Assembly: GCA_973895155.1 (NCBI GenBank)
Contig: OZ316891.1
Coordinates: forward strand, 3,547,801 to 3,611,800
Source of the DNA: Marsupella aquatica
Lineage: Eukaryota > Plantae > Marchantiophyta
DNA: 64,000 nt
Direction of reading: 5' to 3'
The position numbers and the translations under genes are program-made. The number at the start of each line of letters is the position of its first letter. The first letter of the stretch is position 1. This document shows, piece by piece, positions 3,050 to 34,700 of this stretch. Below the pieces are notes generated by a model that saw nothing but the letters and a program-made list of their open reading frames with translations, had not been told where the DNA came from and searched no databases.

Positions 3050-6000
3050 GGGCAATATTGGCTGTCATATTAGATGTCATTTTGACCAAATGACTGCATA
3101 TGTCGTCATTCAAGACATCCCTCATGGTGTCATTATGGAAAAGCAAAAATGACCATTTTTGGTCTACGAGCTTAAGGTGGGCCCGAGTGTGCCATGGGCC
3201 CTACATAGAGGTGAAAAACTCTCCACTAGGTGCGGGACACTACACTCATCATTGTCCAACCACTAGTTGCAGCATAAACACTTTGGACACATGTTTTTCC
3301 GTTTACTTAAGGCATGATGCACCTTTGGGGAAATCACTCCCAAGTCATACGACTTTGGAGTGATTTGCCAAAAGTGTCACCATGGATGCATACCATCACA
3401 TCCAAACGCAAACAAAAGTGGTATTTTTGTTCTCTAAGAGAGAGTGCAACACCAATAGAATGGGTGTGGTTGTTGTGCTTCCCTATATGGTGTGTGTGCG
3501 GGTTTAGGGTAGAGGAATATTCTAACCTTGCAAGGAATCTAAAGCAGGCTCTTTGTGGAGGTACTAGGGCCTTTATTGGGTCATTTGTGAACAATGGTCT
3601 GTCATAAATGCCAATGACTAAAAGGAGGGTCATTAAAATTGTCATATGGGAAGTCATATAAGTCAAGTGACTGGGCTTGTGGTCATTTGTGTGGTTCCTC
3701 ATGCAGTCATTAAAGAGAAGCACAAATGACCAGTTTGGGACTAGGGACTTAAGGTGGGCCCGAGTGTGCCATGGGCCCTACATAGAGGTGAGAAACTCTC
3801 CACTAGGTGCGGGACACTACACTCATCATTGTCCAACCACTAGTGGCGGCATAAACACTTTGGACACATGTTTTTGCGTTTACTTAAGGCATGATACACC
3901 TTTGGGGAAATCACTCCCAAGTCTCCATGGATGCATGCATACCATCAGTTCCAAAGGTAAATGAAGCCATTTTTTTTGTCTCTCCAAGAAGTCGCGCAAC
4001 ACCAATGGAAGGTTGTCATACGTTTTAGGAACGTGTCATGTTTGTGCCAGTGTTTGGATGGGGAATACTCCATTTTGCATACGAATAGTGTCGGGGCATT
4101 GTGAGTAGGTGTTGTAATCTTCATTGGGTCATTTTGGAGGAATAGAGTGTCATTAATGCCAAAGACTACAATAAGGGTCATTTTGGCAGTCATTTTTTAG
4201 GTCATTTTTTAATGTGCCAAATGACGGCATATGGGGTCATTATAGAGGTCCCTCATGGTGTCATTATGGACCAACAGAAATGACCATTTTTGGTCTAGGA
4301 GCTTAAGGTGGGCCCGGGTGTGCCATAGGCCCTACATAAAGGTGACAACCCCTCCACTAGGTGCGGGACACTATACTCATCATTGTCCATCCACTAGTTG
4401 CGCCATAAACACTCTAGACACATGTTTTTGTGTTTACTTAAGGTATGATGCACCTTAGGGGAAATCACTCTCAAGTCATACGATGTTGGAGTGATTTGAC
4501 AAAAATATGACCATGGATGCATACCATCGTATCTAGCAAATGGAGCCATTTTTTGTCTCTCCAATAAGTAGCGGGACTTTGATTTAATTGTGTCATGTTT
4601 GTGTTGGTGTTTGGATGGGGAATATTCTATTTTGCAAATGAAGAGTAACGGGGCTGGTTAAAGGTAGTAATGTAATCTTTATTGGGTCATTTCTGAAAAA
4701 TTGTGTCATAGGTTAATGCCAATGACTACAAGTAGGGTCATTAAAATAGTCATATGGTAAGTCATATAAGTCAAATGACTGGACTTCTTGTCATTTGAGG
4801 GGTCCTTCTTGCAGTCATGAAGTAGAAGCACGAATGACCAGTTTGGGGCTAGGGGCTGGAGGTGGGCCCTAGAGTGCCATGTGGCCCCACATAGAGCTGA
4901 CAACCCCTCCACTACGTGCGGGACGCTATACTCATCATTGTCCAACCACTAGTTGTGCCATGAACATTTTGGAGTTATCTTTTTGCGTTTACTTAAGGCA
5001 TGATGCACCTTTGGGGAAATGACTCCCAAGTCATACGACTTTGGAGTGATTTGCCAAAAGTGTCACCATGGATGCATACCACCATATCCAAAGGCAAATG
5101 GAGCCTTTTTTTTGTCTCTCCAAGAAGTAGCACAACACCAATGGAAGGCTGGACATCATCCTTTGATCTAATTGTACATGTCATGGTTGTGCTGGTGTTT
5201 CAATGGGGAATATTCTATTTTGCAAATGAATAGTGGCGGGACACTCCAGGAGGTAGTGTAATCTTTATTGGGTCATTTATGAGAAAAATTGTGTCATAAA
5301 TGCCAACAACTACAATTAGGGTCATTAAAATGGTCATGTGGGATGTCATATAAGTCAAATGACTGGACTTGTGGTCATTTGAGGCGTCCCTAATGTTGTC
5401 ATTTAGGAAAACTAAGCAAAAATGACCAGTTTGGGGCTAGTGGCTAGAGGGACGCCCTAGAGTGCCATATGGCCCCACATAGGGCTTGCAACCCGTCCAC
5501 TAGGTGCTGGACACTCTACTTACTATTCTCCAACCACTACTTGCACCATAATTAATGTTGAGCCATGTTTTTGCGTTTAGCTAAGGCATGATGCAGCTTT
5601 GGGGAAATGACTCCCAAGTCATACAACTTTGGAGTGATTTGCCAAAAGCGTCATCATGGATGAATATCTTATATTCCAAAGGCAAATGGAGCCATTTGTT
5701 TTGTTTGTCCAAGAGTTAATGCAACACCAATGGAATGGGCATGGTTGTGGTGCTTCCATCTATGGTGCATGTGCGTGCAGGTTCAAGGTAGAAGAATATT
5801 CTAATTTTGCAAGAAATCTAGGGCGGGCTCTTTTTGGAGGTACTAGGGCACAAGTTGGTCATTTATAAAAAATGGTGTCATAATTGCCAATGACTACAAG
5901 TAAGGTCATTAAAACAGTCATCTAGGATGTCATATAAGTCAAATGACTGGACTTGTGGTCATTTGAGGCATCCTTTGTGCAGTCATTATCAAGAAGCACA

Positions 6001-6720
6001 AATGACCAGTTTGGGGCTAGGGGCTGGAGGTGGGCCCTTGAGTGCCATGTGGCCCCACATAGAGCTGACAACCCCTCCACTAGGTGTGGGACACTTTACT
6101 CATTATTGTCCAACTACTAGTTGCGTATTGAACACCTTGGAACCATGTTTAAATGCGTTTACTTAAGGGATGATGGAACTTTGGAGAAATCACTCCCAAG
6201 TCATACAACTTTGGAGTGATTTGCCAAAAGTTGCACCATGGAAGCATACCATACTATCCAAAGGCAAACAAAACATATTTTGTCTCTCCAAGAGGAAGTG
6301 CAACACCGATGGAATGGGCGTGGTCATGGTGCTTCCCTCTATGGTGTGTGTGGATTCAAGGTAGAGGAATATTCCACTTTTTTCAAGGAATCTAGAGAGA
6401 GCTCTCTTTGGAGGTACTAGGGTAGTCATTTAGGAGAAGCACAAATGACCAGTTTGGGGCTATGGGCTGGAGGTCGGCCCTACATAGAGCTGGCAACCTG
6501 TCCACCGGGTGCATGACACTCTACATACTATTCTCCATGCACTACTTGCAACATAAACACCTTGGAATATGGGGGTTCTCTTTTGGAGGTACTTGTGCTT
6601 CATTGGGCCATTGATGAACAATGCTAGGTCATAAATGCCAATGACCTTATATACTTAGTGTCATTGTGGCTATGAGGAGAGAGGTTAAAATGACCAAATT
6701 GGGCCAGGGCTAGAGGTCCT
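3050..6720 (+). repeat. Satellite-like array of ~570-bp units (about 6.5 copies) inside the CACTA element
   Basis: Marker (C)TCCACTAGGTGCGGGACAC recurs near 3221, 3798, 4352, 4907, 5495, 6075 and 6500, spaced 554-588 bp apart with the last unit truncated. The look-alike short ORFs here simply reflect the repeat. Confidence 0.93.
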
Positions 6721-11670: not shown

Positions 11671-13839
11671 ATACCTAGATTACATGGTTTATGGGACTAC
11701 AAATTCACAACCAGCTACGTAGTCTCAATGTGATGCATTTTTTGCTCTGATGCATATGACCTGTATTTTCCATTTGCTGATACAGGAGCGGGAAACTACA
11801 AGCTACCTGACATGAAAGGGACAACCACACTGTGGAATTCCAGATTGCTTAAGAAGCAATAGTTGTAGATTTGAGGGATGCAGCTCCTGTACAAAGTATA
11901 ATCATAACTTTTTTGATTCATTTGTTGATCACAAGCTTGATTGCTGGAGAATAGGATTAGATGCTCAACAGTATTCCAGTGTAGATCATTGATGAAATAT
12001 TGTATGACACTCAAAATGACATTATAAATAATGTGCATTATGATATCCAAAATGAGTCCATCATGTATGACATTCCAAATGAATTTATAAATGACGTGTG
12101 TTGTGACATCATTTTAATGACGCCTTCTCAAGTCATTTCCGTCATTGGAAAATGACATCTTTTATGACTGTCCAAAATGACTAAATGAAATACGTCATTT
12201 TTTACAGATGAAAATGACTAATGAAAATCGTCATTTTGGACAGATCCAAAATGACAACTAAGTATATCCATGTGTATCACACAATGATCCACATGGTGGC
12301 TAATGATTTGTGAGAGCTTTCGTCATATTAGACATGTCTGAAATGACAAGAATTTATTGCCCCATGTTGATTATGAAAGATGCCACATGTCTATGGTTCA
12401 TTTGTTCAAAATATGGGTCATTCTGGACATGTCTAAAATGACATTATTTGTTTAGTGGTTGGACACGTGGCTTTTTTTAATTGGTGACGGTGACCGTCAA
12501 TGGTGAACGGCACAAGACCGTTGATGACACTTTTTTACATCATTTTGGACTGTTGGTCATTTTGGACCTTTGGTCATTTCTAGTAATTTTGGACAATAAC
12601 CAATGACCATGGGATTTTTGCGTCATTTGTCCGATAGGACCATGACGCATTTGTCCAATGCAACGTGTCTGGAAAGACACAAACAAATGCGTCATTGGTT
12701 TGATGAAAAGACCATGTCAATAGTCATTGTTACAGTCATAAATAACCCTGTTTTCTACTAGTGTTTCTTGGTCACCTTTGCCCCACTCTGTCAAGAATTG
12801 CTCAACTTGTTTTCTCTACTCCATTGAAATACCAAATAAAAGTAGAATTCTTGGAACCAAATCAGCTTTGGAAGGATACATAGTACAATTTTGGTCACTT
12901 CCAATGAAGAAAGAACTCACAACAGCTGTTAGCACCTTAGACGTGTACAGATTCTCATCGACAATGCCGTGGTAGCTCGGCAATCTTATGCAACACTAAA
13001 GTTTTAATTTTGTGCATGTTTGCCAGTCTCCTTGTAATCTTTCACCTGGTTCAGGACGCTGTCACCAAGAGAAGGAGATGGCTGGGACGGAAGGATGCTT
13101 TAATTTTTGACTTGGTGAAATTGTTGCAACTTTTTTAGGGGCTTTTATTAGGGGCAGTAGCTCTTCTAGGTTTTTTGGTGAGTTACGGCTCTCTAGACAG
13201 TAGCTCGTTAGACTACTGCCCTTTAGAATGTAGCTGTTCTTCCTGCTATCGTCATTGACCTGTGGTCTGGTGGCTTTTGATGGCCCCTTAGACGTTTGAC
13301 CTTTCCTGCTTTAGGTCCTCTTTTCTTTTTTTCTGACTTCATGTCCCTTGTGTTGCTCGGGGGTCTCACTCCGCGAAAACAGCACATCACGTGCGAGAAA
13401 GTATAGGGTCCATTTATTAGATTATAGGAAAGACTTAAGAAGATTTGTGTAAGAACAATAGGTTCCAATTTATTCATAAACACACTTTAAAGAATGATAG
13501 GATTTTTTGGGGGGTCCACTTCCATGGAATGGGTTGAGGAAAGATAGGGTAATATGCTACAGGAAAAAAGAGTATACACGTGTCACTATGGGATTGGGCC
13601 ATGTGGCACTCATTTCAAATTAGGGGCTACTCGATCGGGTAGTCCACATATTTGAGGTGGCAAGAATTTTGGATGGGGTATATACGTGAGTGGGGCCGGG
13701 TTTCAAGGACCTGGCCACATGTTTAGGGTTTGGGGGCCCGGGACCATTTTGAATATGTCCCATGTTAGGGCGGCTGTTTCCCTCCACTCTTTGTTGGCCA
13801 AGCCCAGTTCATTCCTTGCCTTGACGTTGTCCAAAGGGA

Positions 13840-15270
13840 GTGTTGCTTGCGCTGCTAACGGGAGTGTAGTCCAAAGCGAGTGTTGCGCAGCACCATGAGC
13901 TGTTGCGAGGGAGTCGAGGGAGCCGAGGATGGTGAGTGCTGAGTGTTCCACTCCTGCACTGCTGCCGGGAGCTATTGCTTTGTGAGGATTGCGAGGGAAG
14001 TGAAAGTTGTGCTGTGAGGGAGGCGAGGGAGGCGCTACGAGGGGGGCGAAAGCTACACTGTAAGGGAGGCGCTACAAGGGAGGCAAAAGCTGTGTTGTGA
14101 GGGAGGCGAGGGAGGCGACAGAGGTGAGTGCTGCACTATGATCAAGGGAAGTGTTGCGCTGCTAAGGAGGTGAGTGCTGCGCTGTGAGGGAGGCAAGCTA
14201 GGGTCGGAGTGCTCCGCTGTGAGGGTTGCAAGTGCTGCGCTGCTTGCTCAAACGGAGTGCTGCTCTATCAACTCTGGTATGGGAGTGCTCTTAATTTCTT
14301 GCTTTGACAATCAGGCTTTCTATGGATTGAAGTCATGTTCCAAATCGTAGGCTTAGTCAAGAGGAAGTAAGTTGCTTGCTTTGTTTGTGCTTCTCACTTT
14401 TTGCTGATTGAAATGAAGTGCTTTCGATCAGTTGCAGTTGGGCTGCGAGGTGGGCTACAAGGTGGGCTGCGATCGGGTTGGGAGTTGGGCTGCAATCTGG
14501 TTACTAGGCTGTGACCTGAGCTGGGCTGCATTGTGTTGCAATTTGTGAGTTGCATTGCCTGCAATCCGGTTGAGAGCTGAGCTACGCTGCTGCTGCAATC
14601 AAGTGCTCTTGGACTGCTGTTGCGATTGAGGCTGTTGGAGGATTGTTGCTGCAATTGAGGCCGGTGCTGCGATTGAGGCTGCTGCTGAACTGCTATGATT
14701 CAGAGCTATTGGTGAGAGACTGACCTTCCATTGTTGAGCTACGTTGCTACATTGAGCTACATTACTTGACCTGGTACTTTGCGCTGCGAGGTGGGCTGCG
14801 ATCGAGTTCAAAGTTGTGCTGCAATCTGGTTGAGCTGGGCTGCAATCCGAGCTAGAGCTGAGCTGCGCTAAGTTGCATTGCTTGCTTTGATAATATATTG
14901 TGCTACTCGCTGTGCTACTCGTTGTGCTACTCGTTGTGCTACTCGCTGTGCTACTCGGTGAGGTGATTTTACTTTGAAGATGAACTAAGTGCTATGAACC
15001 GGCTTATTGTAAATGGGATTGTAAAGGAGTTATGATCAAGCTCTAGTGAGCTCTCACAACAATGTTGTTGTTGATCAATGTTGCGCTGTAGCTAGATGCC
15101 ATTGCTTGACGTTGTGCTTTCAGCTGCATTTTCAGTTGCTGGGGTGCAATCAGGTTGAGAGGTGGGCTGCGCTGTAGGGAGAAACACTGGGCTGCCTCTG
15201 GAAATCAGAAAATCAGCTGAGACAACTTCCAAGCCGGGAGATTTCCAGGGAGATTTCAACTACGTTCAGG
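13840..15270 (+). repeat. Low-complexity GC-rich repeats in the element's left arm (GCTGC/GGGAGG motifs; TGCTACTCG(C/T)TG array at ~14900-14958)
   Basis: Degenerate short repeats are directly visible. Possible donor/acceptor pairs suggest a spliced 5' leader for the accessory gene (inference). Confidence 0.6.
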
Positions 15271-16334
15271 TACGGTCATTTTTAGAACTCGCTCCAGAGC
15301 TTAGTCTTCAAGTGAGCAATAGTTCTAGCTCATAGTGGAATAGGATTGACAACTCTTGTTCTACTACGGGGTATCGTTGCAGACTGAGTGATTTGTATTT
15401 TATTCATTGCTTATTGGAACCGAGGCTCAAACCAAAACTTGCTTTGTTTTCAGGCTCCTCTGGCTGTTGGACTGCTGTTGAGTTGCTGAGGGCTAATAAA
15501 AGTGTCCCATTTTTTACACCTCAAAGTGAAATCAAGTATGACTTAGGGGACTCGAACATGTTTGCAACATTAATTGCATGCTTACTAGTCTGGACCAGGC
15601 TCTGGACACTACATTGAAACTTGTTTTGCTTAGCTATCAATTTTGTAAGGACTAGGTCACACATCTTTGTGCGAAAGTGTGTTCATGTTGGGAAATTTTG
15701 ACCAGAACTTGTTGCTGGATAGTTCTTATTGAATGATTCAGTTCACCCTCAGGTAGTTGCAGGGGTACAGGCAAAGCAAGGGGCTGTTGAGGAGCACCTA
15801 TCTTTATGCTTCTGTAACCTCTACTAAAATGTTGAGTTGAGGTATAGTACGGGACCTGTGCTGGTATTAAATTTTACGTCTGTCATTTCCATCCATGACT
15901 TCAACCATTTCTAGTCGAGCAGAAGTTTGTTTAGCTTCAAATGTAGTAGGGGAATTCTAATGTAGTCCATGAAGTTAATTTTGACATGTGGGCAATGTTG
16001 CTTCTATTCACCAGAGTTGATGTTGAGCTGCTGGCGGATCAAACTCTTTTTGAAGTGTGGTGCCTGGAGACGTTGCAAGATTCTTTAGGTCTGTCAAACG
16101 CAGAGGCAGTTGAGGTGTTGCCCCATTCTGATTACTTGTAGACATTGTTACTGGTAGACATTGTTAATTCATCATTTACAAAAAAGTGTCATGGCTATAT
16201 TGAAGATTACCCTAGAGGAGAATTATGAGAAGCTCCTTTTGCAGCATCCAGACGAATGCTGCTGGTGTGAATCCTGTGTCAAGTGCAGGGTTGGCAATGG
16301 CAATTTTTAATGGTTCCATTGCTTTTGCTTGAAA

Positions 16335-17586
16335 ATGCGCGGAAGACTTGTTACTAGGACATACATGGCAAAGAACGGCAAAGTTGTCACACGCCGCTGG
16401 AAGTGCTCTTGTATAAGGCCAACCATTTGGCCTCAAAATGAGTGTCTTTTACGCAAGATTGTCATCCCGGACACGCTTGACATTGTAGTCCCTGATAGTA
16501 TTCCACATATAACTGAGCTTGATATTGTAGCCCTAGATAGTATTCCAGATCAAGCTAAGGTTACAACCCATGGATGCTTGACATTGTAGTCCCTGATAGT
16601 ACATGGATGCGTTGTTCATATATGACTAGGCCTTTGTTTGCAAGGCTGCAATTGTACCATCCATGATATATGAGAATATTTTTCATTCCCATTATGTGGC
16701 AAAGTTTTGCAAGCTGGCATTGTATTTATGTATGTCTTGGTTGGTCTGTGCTCAGGTTGCACTGTGTAGTTGACTTCATCTGGGAGGGAGGTTTGCAGAT
16801 CGTTGGAGCAGGTGCTATGATTAACCTTATCTTTGTCTATGGATTGCCGACTATCATACATGTCCCCCTCATATGTGATGTGCTTTGTGATGATTGCAGT
16901 TGTAACCATGCCGACAAGGAATTCAAACATGAAGAAAGCAACACAGTCCTCTGACAAAGGAGCCTCTTTAGAAGAGGTATTGTGTATTCCGTTGTTCTCT
17001 GAGCAAGAGATTCTACAAACTAGCCCTCATGTTTGTGAAATTTGTGAGCATGGTGGGAAGTTGGTAATTTGTGATGGGCCATGTCACAGGCAATTTCATT
17101 ATGTGGTTGGAGATGAAGCCCCTAATGACTCTTGCCCCTGTGTAGTCCTTCCCCTCCATCGTGGAGGGAAGCCATGGTTTTGCCCAAATTGTAACCAGGA
17201 CCAGGCCATGTGTTATGGGTGCCGCACTGTGGGACCGTCACCTACAATTGTGCGAAAATGCTCTGATCATTTTTGTGTACGATTTTATTGCTTTGGGTGT
17301 TTGGTAGCTGATGCAAAGTCCTGCCCATTGCATACATGTGTGACATGTTATCAGAGTCTTGAGGGTACGTCAGATGGTCAAGAACATGGTACAATGTCTA
17401 CGATGTCCAAATGCCTGGCATACAGATTGTCTCCAAATGATCAAAAGCAAAGGGTTTGCTCATGATAGGGACATCTGGGAACATGAAGCACATGGACAAC
17501 AGCGACAAATGTTTTATTGCCCCCGTCATCCTATTGATCCACACCTCAAGACTCCAATCTGGGACCACATTTCATGGCTCCAATGA
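16335..17586 (+). pseudogene. Transposon-borne EDM2-like (NSD-type) tandem PHD-finger gene, frameshifted
   Basis: 17030-17586 reads VCEICEHGGKLVICDGPCHRQFH...WFCPNC...CYGC...KCSDHFCVRFYCFGC...CPLHTCVTC [frameshift ~17370] QCLRCPNAWHTDCL...FYCPRHPIDPHLKTPIWDHISW. This matches the EDM2 PHD cluster and its YCxxHxIDxxLxTPxxDHI tail as I recall it. The upstream part is decayed and has three DIVVPDS-type repeats at ~16480-16600. The start is uncertain. Confidence 0.8.
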
Positions 17587-19213
17587 TCTGAATAATGAAC
17601 AAACCTATTACTTAGGTTTCAACGTCGTAGTGGAGTATGAGCAAGGCAAATACTTAAGCTGCATCATGGGTGGTAGTACTCAATTTTATTAGTGTTGACC
17701 ATTTGTCATAATTAAGGTCACTAATAGTGCTGCATTTTGATGAGCAGAAGCACTAAACCTCAGGAATTGTTAGAAAACCAGGCGAAAAGGATATTTTGTC
17801 CAAAGATATTTTATCCAACTTTAACGGTATATCATGATTTTCACTCAATACATTTTGCATGTATGATGGATTGCATTATAAAGTGTTTTGGCCTATTAGC
17901 ACTTCTTTTGTTAAAAGTTTGCTGACAGTATGTATATTACATGAGAATGTGTCTGTTGTCATTGCATCTCTTGAAAATCCTAATGTTTTTGCATTGTGTG
18001 TATTTCAAATGTATTTGTGCAGGTCTTCTTGTTATCGACTCCAAAAGCAATTGTGCTATGCATGTTCTAGATTTGTATTGCAATGGCAGCCCCTAAACCC
18101 AACTCTGTGAAATTAATACGCAAAGTTGGGGATGACAAGGCTGATTTACCAATCTGTGTTTTGTCATTCAAAGGACACACCCTACATGATTTTAGGGCTC
18201 GTATTGGCTCTACTCTAGACTTTGACTTTGATTTTTGGGATGAGAGACTTCCTGGTCGAGTGAAACCTGTACATGAGAAATTAATTGATCTGTCTAAGTT
18301 GGATGGAAGAGTTATTGTCACATCATCAGCCTTGGCCTTAACTCGGGCTTCAGCTTTAAACGGGCACCTCCTTCGTAAATATGAGGGTTCGGGCAGGGAG
18401 GGAAGAGCGTAATGCACCTAATTCATGTAAACTAGCGCTAAGTGCGCCTACTGTTAGATACGAACATCTCCTAGGTATGGTTTGTGTTCTGCCGCCGGAA
18501 CGTACCTTAGTCGATAACAGGATCAACCCCGGCTTAAGGACTTCTAAGCCTTCGTGTTGTCCACCTTCGATCCGGATTCTATGATACAGGTCCTCAACCC
18601 GTGCTCGCAACCACATACCCGCAAGCTGCACCCCGTGCACGACTCGGGTAGTGCATTCGGCCCGGCGTTGTCACCTATACACGAGATTCACACAAACATA
18701 CACGCGTACAAGCATACAATCTCGATTTACACGAAGGAAATAATGGGAAAGGATTTTACTACATAGGGGACATGTGCGTACACTTGGTTGACCCGATAGC
18801 TCCGAAATGAACAGGTTCAAGGCCGAGAGAGCATACTACAACGGAGCCCGGCTCCGCACTCGCCCGACGAGCTTAGTCCTACCCCCTCCCCTTGGTACTC
18901 TTTCACTCCCAGAGGTCGGGACTCCCCGCACATACCACGGATGTCCAACTCTGAGACTAAAAAGCCCCCCTGCCTCTATCGAGGGGTGCACTAAATACTA
19001 AGGGCCGGGGAATGGAGTGTCCTCCCGCCTGAAGATTTGCTGACTTAGGTCCTAACTAATCTGACTGTCAAGCCGAAAAACGGCTGTGTCTTATTAGAAG
19101 ATCTTAATCTACGTAGGCTGGACAGCATGGCAGTGCTGCGGTAACTAAGGCAGGTGCCTGTCCCAATAGCCTGACTTAGCTACTCCTAACCCTATTCTAT
19201 TCCTACTCCGCCG

Positions 19214-22103
19214 CTAATGCCTGGCACGCTTGCCAGGGCCGCCCGAGTGGGAGCGGCCATCCCGCTGCTTACGAAGTCTGTCGTTGTCCGCCTTGAGGAG
19301 CTGGACCTGGTCCAGCAGAGATTTGTTCTCTCGCTTCGCCGCGTCTGTCTCCTCTGCTGCCTCCTGGCATGCCTCCTCCAGCTGCTGGGCATCGCTCGTC
19401 AGCTTTCCCGCCAGCTGGTCCTGCTTCTCGGCTTCGGTTTGGAGCCGCGCCACTTCGGCCTGTAGCGTGGCTATCTCCGCAGTGTCTTGCTGGGCCCGTT
19501 CTTCGGCCTCCTCCAGGTCTTTCTACCAGATGACAGTTTGATTCTTCAAACTGTCAATCTGGTTCCGGAGTCGTGCAATCTCGGCCTCGTTACCCAGCTT
19601 TGGCCTGCTCGGCTAGGCGGTAAGGGCATGCGCCTTTGCTAACAAATCATTGGCGGCTGCAACTTTGGGTCGTAGTTGCAGAAGCTCAGCCTCTTGAGCC
19701 GCAACTTCGTTCTTTAAGTATACGGACTCCACCCAGTATCGCTCTATCCTCTAAAGGGCCTCTGGCTGGGCCCGACCTGCCTTTACTGCGGCAACTAACT
19801 CCTGATTGAAGAAACAAGCTACCTTTCGGGCCATGAACTCCCCGGTATCCCGGGCAATTTGATGAGAGAAATCTCCCAGAAGCCCGTTCAGAAATGTACC
19901 CGGTACGAAGAGTTCTGGGTGGTCCAGGTTGTGCCTGTCCGGAGTTGGGCACGGGCAGACGTCAACACGCGCGGGGGCCGGGGTAGTGACATCCAGCCCT
20001 GGGGATCGACGCAATGTTGGAAGGGGCTGGAGTGTCCTCCTGCAGCAATGTTCAGTTTTCTGGAATAGCCACCGGTGGGTCTTTGGGAGACCCGGGCTCG
20101 AGTAAGACCTCCGCTGTACCGACTTCGATACTTAGCCTGTCCTGTTGGATCGCATCTACGGTTGCGATAGCCGACCCATCCGGTACCTCCTTGGTTACGA
20201 CTACAACTACTTGTGGAGGTAGGGTGGATGAAGCTTGCGCGTCCGCTGGACTTCGGGCCTCGGGTTGGGGCCATCTCTCCAAGGCCGGAAAAACCCACCT
20301 AGCTGGGACCAGCTTTGTAACGTTGACACGAGGAAGGGTTTGTCGATCAAACCGAGCGTACCACTCAAGAATGATCTCGATGTGGCTAGCAAAATACGCC
20401 TTCCCGCCAATGTACAGCGTCTTCCTTTGCCGCTCCATCTCTTCATGGAATTTCTTAGCGAAGTACGACGCCCACTTCCTAGGTCGATAGTTCTTGACCT
20501 GGATAACCTGGGCGGCGGAGATCTCCCCCCGGGGTTCCATCATGTGGAGGGCGTACCTTTGGAACTCCAGTCGCTCAGCTATCTCGGGGATGAGGCAGGT
20601 CCTCATCACAAACCCGTTGTCCACTGCTCCCTCTGAGGGAAAACTTGAGGATTGGTACTTGGCTCCCTTGCCCCCGGGAGCCCGTGATTCGACTCGATGG
20701 TCACCTTCGGGTAATCCGAAGATCATCTTGAGCCGTTCTTCCATGAGGGACATATTCCTTCCCCGCAGCCGAGTATGTTGACGTGCGTCATCATAATTCT
20801 TGACGAACTCCGTCATGTCCTCCCGGTAGTACCTGCAAGTGTTCCAGGGGAGAGAGGCGAGGTGCTTGAATCCCTGAGTCTTCAAGTACATCGCATGCTT
20901 GGGATGGAGGATGTTCTTATGCACGTTTTCCCCCATGCGGTGCATAGTCACCTTGGCCACGGCTACCGTGGCCAATGGTAACCCGGATGCAGTGGCGGGT
21001 TTCTTCCTCTTCTTCCCCCATGACTGGCTCGGGGAAGGTGACACCTCCCCATCCTCTCGATCGGGGATAGGTAGTGCTACCGCCGTTAGTATTGGTCCCG
21101 GGGGCCACGGTCACCGTGTTGTCTGCTGGAGCCGCTCCTTGGGTCCGAGCATGGGGAGGGGACGATGTAGTGTCGGCCCCCTGAGTGTTTGCTCCTCTGG
21201 GCCACCTGAGCAAGGGTGGGGTAGCCTCGTCGTCGTCGCTAAGGTCCACAGCGTTGATGACGAAGCGTACTTGTACTGCTGGCGGGGCGATCGGTGGTGG
21301 GGGTTGGCTAGGCTGAGGCTGAGACTGAGGCTGAAGCTGAGCCTGAGCCTGAGTCTGCGTTGGTGCGGGTACGGGTATGGGGTCCACTGGGCTGGCGCCG
21401 GCGGTTGCGGGTCTAGTTCCCATGAAGCTCTGCAGGTGCTGGTAGAAGTTCTCCGAAGCAAGTGCGGACAACCTTGTCGAACGTGTAGTGTTGGACTCGC
21501 TGTTGATGATAGCCCGAACCTGAGCAGGGATGTGGTCAAAGTGATGTCGTTGCAAGTCGATCATACCCGGGATATTGAAGACCTTGTCCAAAAGCCAAAG
21601 CTCGGGGGTCTCACTATATGGGGACCTCCCCATCGCCTGCGACGTTTTTAGGCCTCGGACCCCCTAAAATGTAAGAAAAAAAATTTATTTTTTAACCCCT
21701 ATAAAGTTGGAATATTCTTGGAATATTCTAAAATTTGGATTAAGAAGACCCTTATATTCTTATAAGTCTCAAAATTGAATTTAAAAGACCCTATTGTTCT
21801 TCTACAAAAATTCTTAAGTCTTCCCTTAGAACCAATAAAATGACCCTATCCTTCGTCGCACGTGATATGCCATTTTTGTGGAAGTGAGACCCCCGAGAGC
21901 CAAAGCAATGCTTCCCAGAAACCGATGTATTTGTCTCCGTTGAAGAAGTACCCAGATACCTCTGCTGGTCGATAAAGCTCGCTCTGAGACGGGTAGTCAA
22001 AGTTAAGGATGTAGTGGTGTCGTCCTGCTAGGCGGATGGCTCTCTCGTACTTGCATTCGATTTTGTATCGGCGCGGGTTGGCGTGTTTCAATGAGTCGGC
22101 CAA
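19214..22103 (-). pseudogene. Long accessory ORF of the LTR-type insert: Pro/Gln-rich linker, Athila-ORF1/plant-transposon-protein-like domain, C-terminal coiled coil
   Basis: ORF pieces 21846-22103 and 20917-21633 join once the MITE is removed (GFWEALLWL|LDKVFNIP). 20052-21044 contains EFVKNYD...LRGRNMSL...LKMIFGLP, resembling the EFYAN...VRG...LGLP motif of Athila/Tat additional ORFs. Heptad-rich 19214-19750. Frameshifts and stops present. Confidence 0.65.
21601..21897 (-). mobile_element. MITE, CTCGGGGG-TIR family, copy 2 (nested in the LTR-type insert)
   Basis: Perfect TIRs CTCGGGGGTCTCACT and AGTGAGACCCCCGAG. TSD AGCCAAAG at 21593-21600 and 21898-21905. Confidence 0.97.
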
Positions 22104-22269
22104 GTGTCTTCCGGTAGACCGGAACTGCGTCCAGAATCAAATGGCCGAACTGGAGAGGATCGTGTGCGACATTTAGAGGAGATAGTAGTGGCGACTAAGA
22201 GAGAACGAGAGAGCTGGGGTCGAAGCTGGCACGTGGACTGATGGACTGGTGCACTACAAAGGGTCGGCT

Positions 22270-22283
22270 CCCTTTTTATATAC
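22270..22283 (-). promoter_or_regulatory. TATA box of the insert's accessory gene
   Basis: Minus-strand GGTATATAAAAAGGG about 170 bp upstream of the ORF, followed by a CT-rich leader. Confidence 0.5.
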
Positions 22284-25200
22284 CTTGAGGGCTTATCGAT
22301 CCCCCGACATCTCCTTGTTGCTTATAGGCTGAACCGTTCACGCTTGTAGTGTACCGGCGACTCCGCCGGTCTGAGTCACCGCGTGTCAGTGGATGCCTCC
22401 TGAAGTTTGTTATACGGACCCGAGGGAGGGGCCCCTCCACGCTTGTAACCCGGGCGTGCGAATGGCGACGCGCCACCAGCCCGAACATGAATTTCCCTTA
22501 TTGACTAATGATTTCCTACTCATAATGGCTACCTAAATACTATCGTTATGCTAATCATAGCGGCCTAAGATAACCCTAACGCGCATGCTAAGCACGGTTT
22601 AGACTGAATTACTCATTACTCGCTGTACCGGCGGCGTCACAGTTATTGTTGTACAACAAGAACTTGGAGATGGTGGGAGGATCCCACCAGTACCCTATCA
22701 TCCTTGCACTCCTGCATCATTGGGTCCAAATACTAGGACACCACAACTGGGGCCAACAGCACCAATACCCTCCCCTATAAGGGCTTCTTTTGAGTCACAA
22801 TTGATGGGAGATGTCCCATCAAAGCTATGGAAAGATGAGTGGATGAGGTTAGAGAAATGGGTACATAAGAAGGGTTATGGTGATCACAATTGGAGAAGTC
22901 GTACCTGGGATGAGGGGACAGATGTTTGAGGGCATCTGAGTGTCTTGAATGTAGGGAAACTTATGGCAATGCAGACAACTCTCATAACCCTAAATCCATC
23001 TCCAATTGCTTTAGTAATTTTAAGACCAAACACTTGGTCTTCAATAAGCACAAGGATAACTATTGTCGGATAAGGGGCATTCCTTCTACTTTGGTTCAGA
23101 TAGCAGACATCTCTGAGAAGCCAGAATATGATCATGCAAATGCCATCAAAGTAGGCATTGAGATAGTTCAGCGATTGAATGCGGAGCTTGGGGATGATGG
23201 CAAACTATTCTCTATTGTTCCTGATCCCAGTACTCCTGAGTATGCAAACAGGTCTTTCCTATTTAAGGTTCGTTGTACTGTCTGTGGAATGCTTCACACT
23301 GACTTGTGCCCCAAGAAGCTTACCTTGGAGCCCAATTTGAGGACACACTTAGTGAGTCGAGATCACTTGGATGCATTGGAGACAAGGCATGACACAAAAA
23401 TGCTTGCCTTGAGGTCTGGGAAGAGGGGCAGGCCAAAGAGGACTGATTCTAGGGACCTACATCCTGGTCAGAGCGGGATTTTGAAGTTCTTTAAAGATGA
23501 TGGGTCCCGAACAGGCAGCAGTTCAGGTTCAGGTTCAGGTGTGTGTGAATCTGTTGATCTTGGTCTGAGTTTGCTTTGTTGGGGATTATGGGTAGAGAGA
23601 GGTGTGCCTCGAGTGTTATGGAAGGGTATATCTTATGATATTTCCAGCATTTTGGATGATCAGTCTGGGGGAATTACATGGCATTGTGAGCCAAGTTGTT
23701 GCTTGGATGTTTTCCATCCAAGAAGAGACTGTGTTGTGAGTATAGCAGGCTGTTTTAGACACAAGGATTGCTTGAGGTTATCAGAGAATGGAGGAGGATT
23801 TGAAAATCTAACTTGTAGTGAATGTGATTCTATAACACTAGAAGATGATTTTCGTGGACGGGTGCACAGGGAAGCGGAAGCAGTAGTCCACAGAGGGAGC
23901 CGAACCACTGCTGGTGGTATACGATTGGATTATTTGACCAACCCAGAGTTAAGAGATCCAGTGCACAAGCTGAACTCTGTGCGACGAAAAGAGCGTTGGT
24001 TGTTAGCTTTGCAGGCTCAGAAAGTATGTGCCTTGAGCACCAGGAAAAGAAAACTAGAGGAGTTGTTAGGAGTTGCAACAGACAGGAAGGATTTGAGATT
24101 GTTTCTTAGGAGTATTTTGAATGGACACAGGAATGGTGCATTTGGTGGTAAGGAGGGTTTGTGGGATTTCTTGAAGGATGTAGCTCGCAATTTAGGCAGG
24201 AAGCCAAAAGGTAATCATTACACTCAGTAATAGGACTCGAGCTATTGCTCAGGTTATGTTCCAATTTGGGGGCCGTCAAGTTGCTCATTGTTTTGCACGA
24301 AACTTGACAGCCCCTAGCCTTGTGACCCTAAAACGTGATAGAGCAAAACTCACACCTTTTCAAACCGGGTTACGGAAGGAAACCTTTCAGGAGATTGCTA
24401 GAGTGTTGTCTGCTGCAAAGCACTCATTGGGCATTGAGGGGGATGTGCCTGTTATCTTTGCTGAGGATGAAACAAGGATCAAAGAACGCCCTAGGTAATT
24501 GGAACTGGACGTTTTTCCAATTGTTTTTTTAATGACTTTACAAGTAGCACTTGGCTGGAATTTCTCTGATATTGAAAAATTGCATGTCTGTGTTTCAGGT
24601 GGGAGGCAAAGTATGATACTCTCATTGGTTTTGTGGACCTTCAGAGCAGCATGTATGCTCCTATGGTTTGGAAATTCTAGTTGGTGAAGGTGATGAGGGG
24701 TATGATAAAATTGTAAGTACATTTGAACAATGCCCCAAGTGCATGTATGCTCGAGTTGTGATTGTGAATCCTCTGCATGAGTCCTTACCTAAATTGGTTG
24801 TGTGTGCACTGTCTTCCAACTTGTAATAAGTTCACAGCTTCTTGGGTACGAGAGCATTGGGTCCAGTTAAAGGCTTTTTGGGATGAATATTGTAGAGCTA
24901 TGGTAGGCCCTTTGCTTGGACATGCTAGTGATGGTGATGCACGTCGCCGAAAGTTGATGCTGGAAGATTACAGAGGGCAGAATGGATCATACCCAAGGTA
25001 CGGAGTTGGGTGGGAAGGGTGGGCTTACTCTGTTTCAATTCTACCAAATGGGGATTTGTATGGCTTTGGTGACAAAGACCAACCTCATAATGGAAAAAAG
25101 ATGATAAACCCCTTAGACAGAGTGTCTTCTTTACTGGTGCTAGGAGATCAACATGCATCATTATTTATGTAGCTAATGTCTACAATCATTATCCAATTCA

Positions 25201-27089
25201 TGAACATGGCATGGCTTGGGATGATGTGAATAGGGCTGACCGGCATAATTGGGCAGTTCCACAACAAATAGCAACAAGAAGAGTGCAGCAATGTCTGAAA
25301 GATATGTATGAGAGGAGAGATGTACAACATGAACAAAGTTTAGGAACTCAGTTGTACTTGGAGATTTGTGCAGATAATTACTTAGATATTTTCTTTTCTC
25401 CAGTTCATGACTTGAGGTCCCGTATTGTGTTAGCATCCAAGGTTTCGTTCTTTCTACGGTTGTGGAGATTGTGGTTTAGGTTTGGTGACCATTCAGTGGG
25501 TGGGAACTTTGCAGCACACACTAAGAAAGACATGATGTCTATATTCAGGCCTTTCATGATGTTAACATGTCATGTCATTTCATTGTGTTGTTAATTTGTG
25601 CCTTTCAAGATAAGTTCCCACATCTAGGTGTTCCCTTTCACTTGCTAGGTTTGGATTGTTGTGAGATTTTCTTCAGCAAGGTAGGAGGCATGAGTGGCCA
25701 TGAGCAAAATTATGATTTTGGCTCTCTGTTGGATAGTGCTGTTGGACTGAACCGGCTTGCTGCCCTGGAATATGGACCAAAAGGCTTGAAGATAGGTCGT
25801 TCACATAAGAAGCAAGATCATGTGTGGGGGAAGATTCATCCTATAGGGGAAGGGGAGGAAGCACCAAATCTACTTGACTATTCTCTCATTGAGACTAATG
25901 AATTCGTGGTTGCAACCCTTAAAGAAGGTTTTGTTGCTGCTAAGGATCTTATGCATCAATTGCAGATGTCTCCACAAAGTTCCTTACCAACAGCTAGAAA
26001 GAGATGGTGGACATGTCCTTGGGTTGTGGAAAGTGAGACCTGGCCACTAGAGGTGGTTCTGAAGGAAGCAGTTGTTTGCAATGATTCTGAGGAGCAAGTA
26101 GAGCACCAACCACCAGACATAGGCCCTCGCCCAACTGGAGATTTTCATGAATTGGAAGATCCTGAGGATGATCTGAATAGAATAGATGCATGGTTAACAG
26201 AACCAGATCCCATTGTTGTTCCTGACATGCATTCAGATGATGTACATAGAGATGATATACAGTTTGATGTAGACCCCATAGATGAGCTTGAGACATTAGG
26301 CCATGAAGTTCGGCATATGTTTAGATCAGTTGTCCATGCTGTAACTAATGCGCATAATCGTACCAAGGTAGTGCCTACTGTTACTTATGAAGGCAAGGTG
26401 ATTTACAAATCCACTTTGGTAAGCCAGCTGGTAGGCAATCCACATTTGTCAAAAGATAGGCTGACAAGAGTGAAACAAGTGCTATACTATAGTCCCGACT
26501 ATAGTACTCGCAAGAGAAAAGTGCAAGAAGCCAATCCTAACTCATGTTTTGTTGATGTTGGCACTGATTGTGCAATTGCATTTGAGTCTGATGATAATCC
26601 TGCTCCAAGTACTAGATCTGGAAAAAAAGGGAGGAAAGAATAAAGCTGTGGTGGAAGCAATCTCAGCAGGTAAGAAATATTTTTGGTTGGGTCGGATTGT
26701 CCAAATGAGACAAAAGTATGGTAGTAGGTGGGGCAATTGTCGGTCACCAATTGATTTGATGGATAGGCCAACTCCACTCGCAGGGCAATCAGGTAGCATT
26801 TGTGAACTGTTGTTAAATTGGTATAGTCCTATTGGTAAGAGCAAAAGTGAATTCAGATATGATACCACTGATTTGAAATGGATGGATATTGAAATGGTCA
26901 TTGCTAGTGTTAGCTTAACCATGAAAGAAGGGGTTATGGATCGTATCTATGTCTTGGATCCAATAGATAGACGTGCATTGGATCAGTATCTTCAAACAAT
27001 GGTATGAATGTTATGCTACTGTTTAGTTTTTGAGAGTATATATTTTTTGTTTTGTTTATATTAGTGGGTGTAGTGGGATAGGATAGGGG

Positions 27090-27149
27090 GTGACGGATTG
27101 GCAACTTGAGATCCTTTCTCAATTAGGGGTTCAATTCCCCTCCGTCACA
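27090..27149 (+). ncRNA. tRNA-like (mascRNA-like) 60-nt structure in the transposase 3' region
   Basis: 7-bp acceptor stem GTGACGG/CCGTCAC plus discriminator A. 9-nt D-replacement ATTGGCAAC. 5-bp stem TTGAG/CTCAA with a 7-nt loop. 5-bp T-stem AGGGG/CCCCT with canonical loop TTCAATT. Confidence 0.65.
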
Positions 27150-28325
27150 TGTTACATCTCTCAGCAGAAGTTTTCAATGGAGTATGGATGGAGTATGTGA
27201 TTGGTTTCAAATTGATTGGTGATGGAATGGATTATTCATGTTGTGACCTTAAAGGCCATCCCACTTATGTACGCAAGGTTTATATTGGGATGACCTTTAG
27301 GTACACAATATAAATGATGCATTGAAATGATCAAAGTTTGAGGTCGAAAAAGGTGCAAGAACTGTTGCAGGGCGTGCCATGTCTGACATAACTTCACAAG
27401 GTACTGGCATAGACTTATCTTTTCTTTCTAGGCATTTTTTATTGATATGTGACACCTTACTTCACAAATTATAGGGGCAATACAAATTGGATTTTAGACT
27501 CTTAGAAGAAAGAAAGGGGGAGGAAAAAAATTTCAACTTAATAAGTATGGGGGTCTAGGCATGAAAACGTCGCAGGTGATGGGGGGTCCTCCATATAGTG
27601 AGACCCCCGAGTTGTGTTGTGCCTCTCTTTGATGGGGCTGTCTCCCTCGGGGCCTGGCCCTTGGTCCCTGGCCTTCTGGCCGTTGTTCTGGCTGTTTTGG
27701 CCCCCCTTCCTGTGGGTTTTCACAGGCTTTACTTGAGAAAAAAAATTTAAAATCACCTGGTTCTTCAATGCCTCATAATGTAACCTCCCGTGTAACCTAG
27801 CTATCAAAGGCACCAGGGCCATCCACCTGTCTCCTGTATCAATGAACAAATACATGAACAAATATAATCAAAATCATACTCAGTGTAAAAGTATGACAAA
27901 TTAACACATAAGCAATCCAAAATACATTCACCAACTAGGCATTAAAACATATGCAATTACAATTACATCACAAAATACATTCACGAACTAGGCATTAAAA
28001 CGTATGCAATTACAATTACTTCACAAAATACACTGAACAAACTAAACTAACTTAAGGAATGGGAGAAAAAGCATAAAGAATGGAAAAGGGCACCTCAATG
28101 GTGTTAGTTCAGCCGCATCTATGTTATTTACTCTACTGCTATGTGCGGGTGCATCTTCTTGTGCAAAAGCTATGCACCCACAACTGTCATCCCAACAATT
28201 GGAGTCTGCTCAAGGAGGATGGGAAGTCTATGAGCATGTCGCTCCCCTCTCCTTGTCATCGTGCCCATCTCATAACTTTTGCCTGTCAATTCCTCCAGCT
28301 CCTTGCTCTTCAGGGTACACAACAT

Positions 28326-30480: not shown

Positions 30481-31793
30481 GATTGTACGAGTATATTGTA
30501 AGCGGAGGGAGCAGTCGGGATATATATTATGCATCGAAAGTTCTGGATGGAGCAATTGGAGGGTTGATGATTGGCCATTGATACAAGGCCCAGAATTCAC
30601 TGATTGGCTCCAATCTTGAACTGCCACAGTTAGAAAAGAGAGCGATCTGACCCAGAGAGCATCACATACATATAGTATAGCATGCATCCAGGAGAACTAA
30701 ATAACAAAGCTACTGTGGCCCACCGACTTCTTCAGTCATTGGCTCAATGCTTTCAAGGCCGTTCACAAAGTAGAAAACGGGATAATGATATGACACAGGG
30801 AGACTGCTTGGCACAACTACCAGATATTGAGTCACCGCTGTGGGCCTTGACAAAGTAGAGACGCTTCCCTTGAAGAGTGACCATTACGCACACTCGATAA
30901 CAGCATTTTCACCCCAGTGATATTTCAAGACGATCACCCCTAATAAATCAGCTTCCCAGTTTGTGCCTCCTCCTACCGTTTGCAAGAATTCGCTTATCCC
31001 TCCATCAGAAGGGCCCAGGCAGGGTGCAAAAACAGCCGACCGATCATAGAGGCAACGCGCAAGCAAGTGTGGCAAAAGGACATTTAAGAGCTTCAAAAGA
31101 CTCTGTCAGCTGTAGTCAAGTGCTCTCTTCTTGGCAGGAACTGTTAGAAACTGAATAAAATCCCCAACACGATGGATCTCTATCAAAACCTACCTCATGG
31201 ACAGAATGTTAGAATGTTGCAATGCCTGGGAAGTTCATGATAAAAGCTAAGACGAACAATAATAAACGAAACTGAACTGGATAGAAGACTATGCGAAGAA
31301 TCAACGTAATCTTCGGCAAAAACCTTTCCAGTACAGTAAAGCCGGATGCTGTCCAGAACGGAGTAAGAGTAGAAGCCCACACCACCTTGTCTCTTCGTAT
31401 AAGTCCAAAGCATTTGAAAGCGTAGACACATTACCCACATACTAGCATGATTGCAGTTCCACCCAAAAGCCATCTGTTTGGAAGTCTAGGCCTTGCTCCT
31501 GGAAAATTTGAGGAAAAGTCTGTGATGTTGCTGATCATCAATCAGCCTCGGATAACAGAATCAAGAAGGCAAAGGACAACCGAATTCTAGTCTTTGAACA
31601 CCAGGATGATTAATGAAAGAAAGTAACCTGGGTCTCTAACTGCCGTTCTTGGATCACTTGAAATACCCACAAATATAAATCTAGTGTACAAAGGGTGCAG
31701 GATCAGGGAACATTTACAGACATAATTGCCTCGTGTCAACGAAATGGAAGAAAGCATCAATGTGTAGGTACAAATGCAATCATGCCTTTTCAG

Positions 31794-34700
31794 TCAATCC
31801 CACCGTTTAACAGTCCATCTCTGACCTCTAGTTTTAAAGACTCCTGTACCCTGATCACTACTTTCTCCACTACTCTCTGCTCCACTGCCATATGCCATCG
31901 ATTTCTTACGCACTACCCCACTGTCACTAATACTCCCTGTCAGCAAGGGGTCGTCAATTCCTTTGATTAGTTGCCCACGACCTGTTGAAGTTGAAAGCCA
32001 AGAGTCATCTTTGACTATTGTTACTCTCTTCTCGTTCTTTTTCCCATGCTTTGCCCATGGCAATTGACCAAAAGTCTCACTAAATTTTGTCAAACCTTTC
32101 TCCATTGGTTCTACAGCTTGGTGTACTGTCAATCTCATATCTTGTACCACCTGCATCACAACTCAAATGAAGCCTTAGCTCTCGATTTGCCAACCAATAT
32201 CATCCGACTTAACGTTGCTACACTACTGGCACATCTCGTGACAGAAATCGGCCATCTTGATAATCGTTGGGACAATTCTGAAGATTACACACTCATTATA
32301 CGTGATGGGCAAGTTTGCGTGCAGAATTGCCTGCCAGAGAGCCGTAAACACATTCCAGACGACACCAGTGCAATGAAAATTCTATACTAGACTAAAAGAT
32401 CTCTCACTCTGGCTTACACACTTTCCCCTGTGACCAGAACAGAGGACCCACAGCCCAAGCCTCAGTGAGATGCACATAAGGAGTAGCGAACGTTTATCGC
32501 GTTACTTACATGTCCACCTCCAACAACAAGAACTTCTTGTACACTTTCCCTTAAACTCGTCGCTTCTCTTTTCCTATGGTCATCCTTGTTAGAAAACTTT
32601 ATCACAGCTGGCTTCGTGCTTTCCATGACTTCCTCGGGATCCAAAGGAGAATCTATGGCTGCATAATCGGCGAGCACCTTTACACTTCCTCGTCGTCGTT
32701 CATCACCCATCATCTGATAAGGAGTGGCTGGAAAGATATAAATATGAGCGACTGCAGCAATTCCCATCTGTTATCAACACGCAACATAAATGCACGGATT
32801 ACTGACAGTGACTCCAGACGTAAAGAAAACAGTTCCCGTCTAACGTTTTTCTCTCGTGACATTTTGGCATACTACCAAACTATGAGTATTGACTCTAAAG
32901 CATTTGTTCTTAAAAATTCTAGTAAACTAATGCCAGAAATGAATCGTGAACGAAAGGCAAGGTAAGCGGCCAAGCAACTCATACATAGTCTTCACATCGG
33001 CAGCATCTATCAAGAGACCATAGTCCTCACATCGAAACTTCCGATCATCAAAAGTGGCTCTCTCTAATAAGAAGCTCAACAGAACCAAACAATTGAATCT
33101 CATTTATCTGACCACTATAAACCTGACGAATCCTTACGTCAAACTATAAGTAACTATCGAATGTCATTTCCAAAAATGGAAAAGAAGAAAGTAGCTAAAA
33201 TAAAGCATCCATTCACCTTACAAGATTTACGCCATAAACACCCTCGCTGCAAACAGTGCGTTAACCCTGCAAAGATTTTGCAAGGACCTGCTAGGAAGCA
33301 AACATATGGCATCAGAGTTTACCTCAAAGCACACGAGACAGTTCTGCAAAAATGTTTGAAACTTTGCTCCGCTAAATTCGTCTGGACCAAGATTTTTCTC
33401 CACCCATCCAGAAGCAAAAACAAGCGATAAGATCACGCCTTGCCACCAGGTTGCAAACACAATTGACTTGAAGCAAATGAACTTTGCCAGAGGGTTAATC
33501 GCCTTCAGCTCCTCATGTGTCTGAGCATAAAATTGAATGAGACAGTATAGAGCCCATGTTTGACTGAAGTTCAGAACCAGTGTTATGTAAGGATAGCTGC
33601 ACAAGGCCCAATACACAAGGAGCTCTCAGTCCAATGGACACCATCAATTTCACTAGCTTACTTAATGTTTACTTAACAGCAAAATTTAGTCTCATCAATG
33701 TTTCCAGGAAAGTACTGAATATTTGAACTGCCAATCAAGATGAGAATTCATTTGTTATCTCCTCAACGATGGATTACCATTCATCCTTAGGTATAAACTT
33801 ATAGTTCACGTGGCCACATAAACGATGCTATGAAGTTGCTGACGTCCGATACATCAAAACAACCACATGACTTACAAAACAACCACATGACTTACACAAC
33901 AACCTCTCCTCACGTGAAAATGGACAGATGTTGTGGAGACTACTGAGGAATGTTTACCTGTGGCAACTAAGCATAGAATGTGAATGTACTTAGAACCAAG
34001 ACTCTCTAAACTTTACCAATTTAGCAAGACCAAACAAGTGTCTCAGGGTGTCCCAAACCAAATGTGGATTGCCTAGCATCCATCAACTTACCTATTATTA
34101 ATATCGAAATTACCCTCGTCATACAGTCCGAAAGAATCCATAACCAGCGCCAAAATTGCGCACAGAGTCTTCAATATCATCTGCGGACCGAGAACATGAA
34201 GTACTTTTATTTTTATTGGAGCGAAAAACAAGTTATTGGCAGCAGGAGCCATTTATGTACACCGCTAGAAAAGCCATTGACATCTTAAATATACAATGTT
34301 TTCAGCCCGTAACGCCTAACAGAAAACTGACCCCAAACGTTAAACCTATGCATTTCATTGCGAAACTTAGAATGAAGATTAAGGTTCAGAAACTAACATA
34401 TTGAACAATGCCAAACTTTGCAGCAGTGTAGAAGTCCTGACCCAGTTCCCAAGGTTCCATGCACCAACTTAAAGGTACAGGATGTTCTACAGCTGCCCGT
34501 CGTTCTTTTTTTCCTGGATCAGATTTGTCCTCAAGTAACGGAGTGCGAGGGCCCTCCTTACCTTCTCTCTCAAAAAGCTGCACGACTTTGTCTTCCCCCC
34601 CTGCATCCAAATATTGTTCATCCCATGCATAAAACTTCATCTTCAAGATCAGAAGATGCAGTGGAAAAGGGTTTGGAAACATTCAATTTTCAAAACCTCT

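Follow-up and report, generated by a model that had tools for sequence, protein, structure and literature searches.

A TIR DNA transposon in the window, by which we mean the whole stretch of 64,000 nucleotides analysed here, carries a stand-alone gene for a triple PHD module 5′ of its decayed transposase. The gene belongs to a family of short proteins that is under purifying selection and that groups in our trees with liverwort EDM2-like paralogues, not with EDM2 itself. We regard it as probably a conserved accessory gene of the transposon. The account of its function that we prefer, at a probability of roughly 0.4, is that its protein is an adaptor that would hold the transposase on host chromatin. 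The original prediction, made from the letters of the window, was of an EDM2-type PHD module that could let the element be transcribed despite H3K9me2, act as a decoy for host EDM2, or steer integration.

The element and its two genes

The element is bounded by a 14-bp TIR core (CTCGGGGGTCTCAC, at 13356 and 27611) and flanked by a perfect 8-bp TSD, TTGTGTTG (Table 1). With two or fewer mismatches allowed, the TIR motif occurs 12 times in the window, versus 0.14 occurrences expected, a count that none of 100 shuffles reached. The other copies of the motif mark six MITEs of ~270-300 bp each. Five of the six have a perfect 8-bp TSD, as do six of the seven insertions of the TIR family in the window once the element is counted with them; the family was therefore mobile in the source genome. 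Four of the MITEs are found inside 3.5 kb, two just 45 bp apart and in opposite orientation, and a 19-bp purine-rich tandem repeat (45661-46107) lies between two MITEs.

Table 1. Positions in the window of the element, its parts, its MITE relatives and the later insertion
Feature	Position	Strand	Remarks
Whole TIR DNA transposon	13356..27611	+	From TIR matches and TSD; 14,256 bp including the later insertion, ~9.9 kb without it
Left 8-bp TSD TTGTGTTG	13348..13355	.	
Left TIR core CTCGGGGGTCTCAC	13356..13369	+	First ~110 bp of the element match the MITE ends at 74-80%
GC-rich sub-terminal short repeats	13900..14960	.	TGGGCTGC eight times and AGGGAGGC seven times within 13701-15300; tandem units of 9 to 37 bp
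Triple-PHD gene	16908..17586	+	Stand-alone, single exon, ~225 aa; leader short and basic; frameshifted once in this copy
PHD1 (C4HC3)	17034..17192	+	
PHD2	17211..17333	+	Shortened; the family's His-to-Cys ligand swap at 17289-17291
PHD3 (C4HC2H)	17337..17529	+	Frameshift near 17376 inside, exact base uncertain
EDM2-family tail PIDPHLKTPIWDHISWLQ and stop	17530..17586	+	Placed as in relatives
Transposase start, 77-aa N-terminal domain	18083..18315	+	Also found in a Riccia relative; a splice acceptor ending at 18022 likely lies upstream
Later insertion, TG...CA ends, solo-LTR-like	18316..22641	-	4,326 bp; 5-bp TSD GTTAT; splits the transposase frame
MITE within the later insertion, same TIR family	21601..21897	-	TSD AGCCAAAG
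Rest of decayed transposase	22647..27007	+	AEDET (24460), ASDG (24924), DQPHNGKK (25077), DRHNW (25238), DCCEIFF (25654)
GT-AG intron of transposase	24495-24598		Junction matches relatives
Right TIR core	27598..27611	-	
Right 8-bp TSD TTGTGTTG	27612..27619	.	
MITEs sharing both ends with the element	647-926, 21601-21897, 43799-44066, 45004-45287, 46652-46936, 46982-47256		

The original prediction placed a Cys/His-rich tandem PHD cluster with the tail FYCPRHPIDPHLKTPIWDHI inside the TIRs, 5′ of and co-oriented with the transposase, and the TIRs and perfect TSD given above bear this out. The stop, TGA 17584-17586, directly follows the tail as described. The reading frame had been given as 17030..17586, which is right at its end but not at its start: the gene begins upstream, at ATG 16908 or 16929. 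The transposase ATG (18083) stands ~500 bp past the PHD stop. All 24 zinc ligands of the module are kept (24/24), and these align, as does the tail, with Arabidopsis and Marchantia EDM2. The frameshift near 17376 puts the tail FYCPRHPIDPHLKTPIWDHI in another frame than PHD1-2. Outside the element, nearby ORFs (446-546 codons) are intact, which speaks against indel errors throughout the assembly.

The profile search proposed along with the original prediction returns NSD-type PHD matches: Pfam gives PHDvar_NSD at E 4e-8 (above the cut-off) and PHD-1st_NSD at E 2e-5 (below it), and a sequence search of the PDB gives PHD1-3 of NSD2 (residues 651-795, E 2e-7). The predicted structure of one relative (P0002, pLDDT 74) found no match beyond generic PHD structures of PZP and NSD type (best E 2e-4), and these did not point to a ligand.

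The transposase frame runs from ATG 18083 to 27007, split by the 4,326-bp insertion, and contains at least five frame changes where homologues back it, with two more read from the frames. Its first domain is matched by a Riccia protein (31% over 72 residues); the domain is ubiquitin-like by eye and has no Pfam match. Among 896 candidates the C-terminal ORF has 44 relatives, those with names being from Riccia sorocarpa (two) and Adiantum nelumboides (one). These matches point to a seed-free host plant, probably a liverwort. A 438-aa Cys/His-rich segment (22914-24227) includes a C2H2-like finger, read from the sequence, near 23270-23370; searches with this N-terminal segment gave no Pfam match and no longer relative.

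Assignment by motif in an intact relative (P0206) gives a DDE triad with D(2)H: D63, D182, D229xxH232 and E424. The second D and the E lie 242 residues apart, in line with a long insertion domain. An Atlas feature score of 0.91 relates the transposase core to clusters in which PF21787/PF21788 are found on 10-15% of members. Searched against Pfam and PDB profiles the transposase had no match, its structure model (pLDDT 47) was too poor to compare, and fold searches gave no meaningful match. By its motifs and its 8-bp TSD the transposase appears P-like, an 8-bp TSD being also produced by hAT and others. The N-terminal transposase pieces gave no THAP match, and so we say ‘P-like’ and not canonical P element. 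The D(2)H motif and the TSD sizes of the P superfamily are taken from PMC3698922, and the distance from second D to E in Drosophila P, 228 residues, from PMC7776569.

This copy of the element is dead, its PHD gene frameshifted and its transposase split and frame-changed. The ratio of observed to expected CpG is 0.31 in the PHD gene and 0.26-0.30 in the transposase, versus 0.62-0.67 in three host-gene segments and 0.85 in the later insertion. We count the CpG loss of the PHD gene, which is like that of the transposase and unlike host genes, as a sign of long residence in the element.

The later insertion has no paired LTRs. Its minus strand has three ORFs (248, 352 and 102 aa, the shortest a coiled-coil) for which Pfam gave no informative match, and it may be either a solo LTR of unusual length or a retroelement with an internal deletion. 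A CACTA-type terminus, CACTAGTAGAAAA (12751-12763, minus strand), stands some 600 bp to the left of the element, with AT-rich sub-terminal repeats at 11950-12750; it has no partner end within the window, and the count of the 13-mer alone is not above chance. Tandem arrays at 3086-6566 (~570 bp unit, seven copies) and 2208-2719 (83 bp unit) are, like the CACTA-type end, rich in ATGAC/GTCAT. Host genes are found at about 31000-37300 (minus), 48500-53000 (plus) and 55800-61700 (plus); their content includes an OST-alpha/TMEM184 transporter exon (PF03619), a FolD exon (PF02882) and long low-complexity ORFs that have no Pfam match.

The stand-alone PHD family and its origin

A word-based search found seven relatives of the PHD gene among 30 candidates (213-239 aa, 43-78% identity). 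A profile search without length limit gave 522 matches, of which the best 150 were examined. Among 176 proteins, 23 score higher against a family profile, built from ten of the same 23, than against a host profile, and all are 93-245 aa long. Fourteen of the 23 reach the tail, each stopping eight or fewer residues past it; six others run into unrelated residues mid-module, one ends at the frameshift of a metagenome copy (L002, below), and two simply end. A fusion of PHD module and transposase was considered and rejected, since the stop after the tail is conserved and no family member exceeds 245 aa among the best 150 of 522 matches.

Several features set the family apart from host proteins. 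The His-to-Cys ligand of PHD2 is present in 11/11 family members and 0/25 hosts. Further family-specific positions are one Gln, one His and two Args, and the PHD2 loop is much shorter than that of hosts. A leader of 32-54 aa precedes PHD1, and nothing follows the tail. The 35 residues before PHD1 contain 2-6 D/E in the family versus 10-18 in four EDM2 proteins. Two residues before the first Cys, where in many PHDs an Asp reads unmethylated H3K4, ten of 11 members have His. Judged from these sequences, histone binding by the family is doubtful.

Twenty of the 23 family proteins were looked up and none has a gene name from an annotated genome, which may reflect poor sampling of bryophyte genomes. 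Median identity is 44% within the PHD family and 49% within the transposase family, so that the two are about equally deep. A metagenome scan for family DNA yielded only two short contigs (L001 and L002, 1.5-1.9 kb), whose flanks have no match to the element beyond the PHD gene and do not extend far enough to include a transposase or TIR. Prokaryote and viral contig collections, scanned likewise, yielded no family member; eleven TIR-motif matches in viral contigs had no PHD, transposase or element match there. Linkage of the PHD family to a transposase is thus observed in one copy only, that of this element.

The PHD family is under purifying selection. For the three DNA copies (window, L001 and L002) pN is 0.33-0.37 versus pS 0.75-0.85 in 3/3 pairs, with 0/500 bootstraps reversed, a result that is silent on whether selection acted inside a transposon. 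Corresponding dN is 0.43-0.50, with dS saturated. The three are all intronless and, as is common for transposon genes, all broken: the window copy by a frameshift, L001 by a premature stop and L002 by a frameshift. A break in a protein from a metagenome contig may, however, be an error of assembly. The original prediction proposed to look in other copies for an intact ORF with dN/dS below 1; purifying selection is seen, with the ORF broken in the DNA copies.

All trees keep the family together. It is on one branch in a fast tree of 161 rows. In a quick tree of 53 rows it has support of 98, and joins six EDM2-like proteins and one long-branch row at 96. In a careful tree of 33 rows, from which four long rows (P0090, P0089, P0020 and P0109), five distant outgroup rows and several near-duplicates were excluded, its support is 100/100, and that for the family plus six liverwort EDM2-like proteins is 97/90. 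AU tests reject, modestly, a grouping of the family with core EDM2 (p 0.028) and its placement with the outgroup, outside the land-plant proteins (p 0.019). The family is on a long branch, and the group of six was defined only after the first tree was seen. The separate clade that had been anticipated is thus found, with 23 members. The label ‘EDM2-type’ stands insofar as the module is stand-alone and of EDM2/NSD type; its sister group, as the trees show it, is the liverwort EDM2-like paralogues and not EDM2.

Those six paralogues are Marchantia Mp1g03210 and Mp4g03050, Riccia R1sor_003797, Calypogeia CAM6087769.1 and CAM6107985.1, and M. paleacea Mapa_015239. In this set (P0021, P0069, P0018, P0019, P0083 and P0026), which includes the 280-aa Marchantia member, the PHD module is C-terminal and the methyltransferase half is absent. 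Like the family, they have the module at or near the C-terminus (0-44 residues follow) and share with it V, W, H and P positions that most EDM2 proteins lack; they differ from it in being host genes, of 280-768 aa, and are only 32-34% identical to it. We found no functional study of them in the literature searched.

EDM2 itself shares the ligand pattern of the triple PHD module and has the YC..H.I...L.TP..DH tail, with 30% identity between the family and Arabidopsis EDM2 over 197 residues. At 1,297 aa, versus ~220 aa in the family, EDM2 alone has the RFD (the AIPP1 contact of EDM2), the acidic tract and the methyltransferase-like half; a DNMT1-RFD profile matches EDM2 at 19-136, and the family has no RFD. 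The family differs also in its shortened PHD2 and His-to-Cys swap, and is not nested in the EDM2 clade.

Three other origins disagree with these results. The gene is not an EDM2 orthologue, being outside the EDM2 clade and devoid of RFD domain, acidic tract and methyltransferase-like (ELP) half. Recent capture of EDM2 exons, which we reject, disagrees with the 30-34% identity, the separate clade, the purifying selection and the AU test (p 0.028). Pack-type passive capture, where cargo is near-identical to host and neutral, disagrees with 30-34% identity to ten host proteins and with a pN far below pS. In the comparison of the window module with these ten, no donor-like host gene exceeds 34%. 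The original prediction was to be given up if the module proved confined to this copy, nearly identical to host EDM2 exons and neutrally evolving, or unlike EDM2 in profile searches; we find many relatives, 30-34% host identity, purifying selection and an EDM2/NSD-type profile match.

Possible functions of the PHD protein

Having neither a catalytic nor an effector domain, the protein can act only by bridging or by competing. According to the bridging account that we prefer, an ancestral P-like element would have captured the 3′ PHD module of a liverwort-type EDM2-like paralogue, stop included; the position of the module, 0-44 residues from the C-terminus in the six paralogues, means that the stop could have been captured together with it. 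Remodelling of the captured module would have followed, giving the shorter PHD2, the His-to-Cys ligand, a new conserved N-terminal motif and the basic leader, which could serve as a nuclear signal. The most likely partner of the protein would be the element's own transposase, whose 77-aa N-terminal domain is a candidate docking site. As a reader it may steer insertion or license cutting on marked nucleosomes, and the mark need not be H3K9me2.

Two points lead us to favour this adaptor. In other TIR elements, namely MULE, PIF/Harbinger and CACTA, accessory proteins bind the transposase (PMC12973397), and the invariant surface peculiar to the family points to a new partner more than to mimicry. 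The selection, the breakage, the CpG loss and the similar depth of the PHD and transposase families fit, but do not prove, a gene that is selected while travelling in the element and lost once a copy settles.

The main rival, which we consider unlikely but take seriously, is the decoy of the original prediction: by taking up the chromatin sites or the partners that host EDM2-type proteins use, an effector-less reader would loosen silencing of the element. The reader module has been kept and every effector part lost. Arabidopsis EDM2 helps to repress the DNA transposon Mu1 (PMC3632883), so that a competitor could de-repress a TIR element, and VANC and TnpA are precedents for element-encoded anti-silencing. 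These two are, however, sequence-specific regulators (bioRxiv 10.64898/2026.08.24.746577, the source for both points), and broad anti-silencing is said in PMC12973397 to be rare in plants. A decoy should moreover mimic the host surface, whereas family and hosts share only 30-34% identity and the family has invariant residues of its own.

It is less likely again that the gene is a passenger, the family consisting of host retrogenes or of cargo of various elements and the element's copy doing nothing for it. That a single linked copy was seen, and that one broken, agrees with this, as does Marchantia Mp4g03050 (280 aa), a short host member of the sister clade by which stand-alone host forms are known to exist. 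Yet Mp4g03050 falls outside the PHD family, 0/20 looked-up members (of 23) are named in an annotated genome, and 3/3 DNA copies are decayed; CpG loss is like that of the transposase, and no donor-like host gene among the ten compared exceeds 34% identity.

An improbable alternative is that the fingers bind DNA, for example the sub-terminal repeats, and not histones, replacing the THAP domain that the transposase appears to lack. PHD-like folds that bind DNA exist, such as the C-terminal domain of piggyBac, and we count these for the idea along with the loss of the acidic tract, the gain of family-specific invariant Args, the short repeated motifs near the left end of the element and the absence of a THAP match in the transposase pieces. 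Against it, the C2H2-like finger that the transposase itself contains near 23270-23370 could do the binding at the ends.

The weakest account is read-through in the style of EDM2, in which the protein would bind H3K9me2 on its own element and favour distal polyadenylation so that the transcript passes the PHD gene to the transposase. The arrangement of the genes suits this idea, as the PHD gene comes first on a strand that it shares with the transposase, whose ATG closely follows a likely splice acceptor at 18022, and EDM2 acts in this way at intronic transposons (PMC7529245 and PMC9910501). Against it, EDM2 works in complex with two RNA-binding proteins (PMC9910501), and the family has neither RFD nor methyltransferase-like domain and is not a descendant of EDM2 itself. 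EDM2, which binds H3K9me2, has ASI1 and AIPP1 as its RNA-binding partners (PMC9910501, PMC7529245, PMC10241880 and PMC8762163). Since the family has no RFD, C-terminal half or acidic tract, H3K9me2 reading and EDM2-style read-through cannot be assumed for it, and its ligand may differ from that of EDM2. Transcription through H3K9me2 is accordingly weakened, and is now the least likely of the three ideas first put forward.

Comparison with known systems

The P superfamily (Drosophila P element, THAP9, Galileo and 1360) is like the present element in its 8-bp TSD, its DDE residues with D(2)H, the ~240 residues from second D to E, and its MITEs. The element differs in having no THAP or other Pfam match, 119 residues between first and second D (73 in P), ~1,500 codons, a second gene and a land-plant host. 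Seven active TIR superfamilies, P not among them, are named in a survey of 1,007 plant genomes (PMC12973397). The full-text literature searched yielded no description of P-like elements in land plants and no report of an EDM2-type PHD gene in a transposon.

RAG1-RAG2 pairs a DDE transposase-type enzyme with a separate PHD protein that ties it to marked nucleosomes. We use it as a working model by analogy. The PHD type here is unrelated, there is no kelch domain, the transposase is of another superfamily, and the pairing is a putative one. It is possible, and we put it forward tentatively, that THAP-less P-like transposons of liverworts and ferns form a two-gene system in which a PHD module from an EDM2 paralogue would be a RAG2-like cofactor, tying cutting or insertion to a mark on the chromatin. 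Should the linkage prove general, the 220-aa protein would be a handle on target choice or silencing escape of a DNA transposon. The analysis also flags an unstudied family of liverwort EDM2 paralogues and a P-like transposase lineage in land plants.

Closer to hand, VANDAL/VANC, Spm TnpA, MuDR MURB, Plavaka PAG1-3 and HarbingerS SET also have a second, non-catalytic or chromatin-related gene between TIRs, the accessory chromatin genes of Plavaka and HarbingerS being described in bioRxiv 10.1101/2025.02.11.637652. As far as the sources read go, none of these is a stand-alone PHD reader and none is in a P-like element, and the main texts of PMC12973397, bioRxiv 10.64898/2026.08.24.746577 and bioRxiv 10.1101/2025.02.11.637652 never use the term ‘PHD’. 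Accessory chromatin genes in TIR elements are thus already known, and their PHD-reader form is probably undescribed: to the DNA-binding anti-silencing proteins and chromatin enzymes that plant transposons are known to carry, the present element would add something new, a pure histone-reader module from the host heterochromatin machinery.
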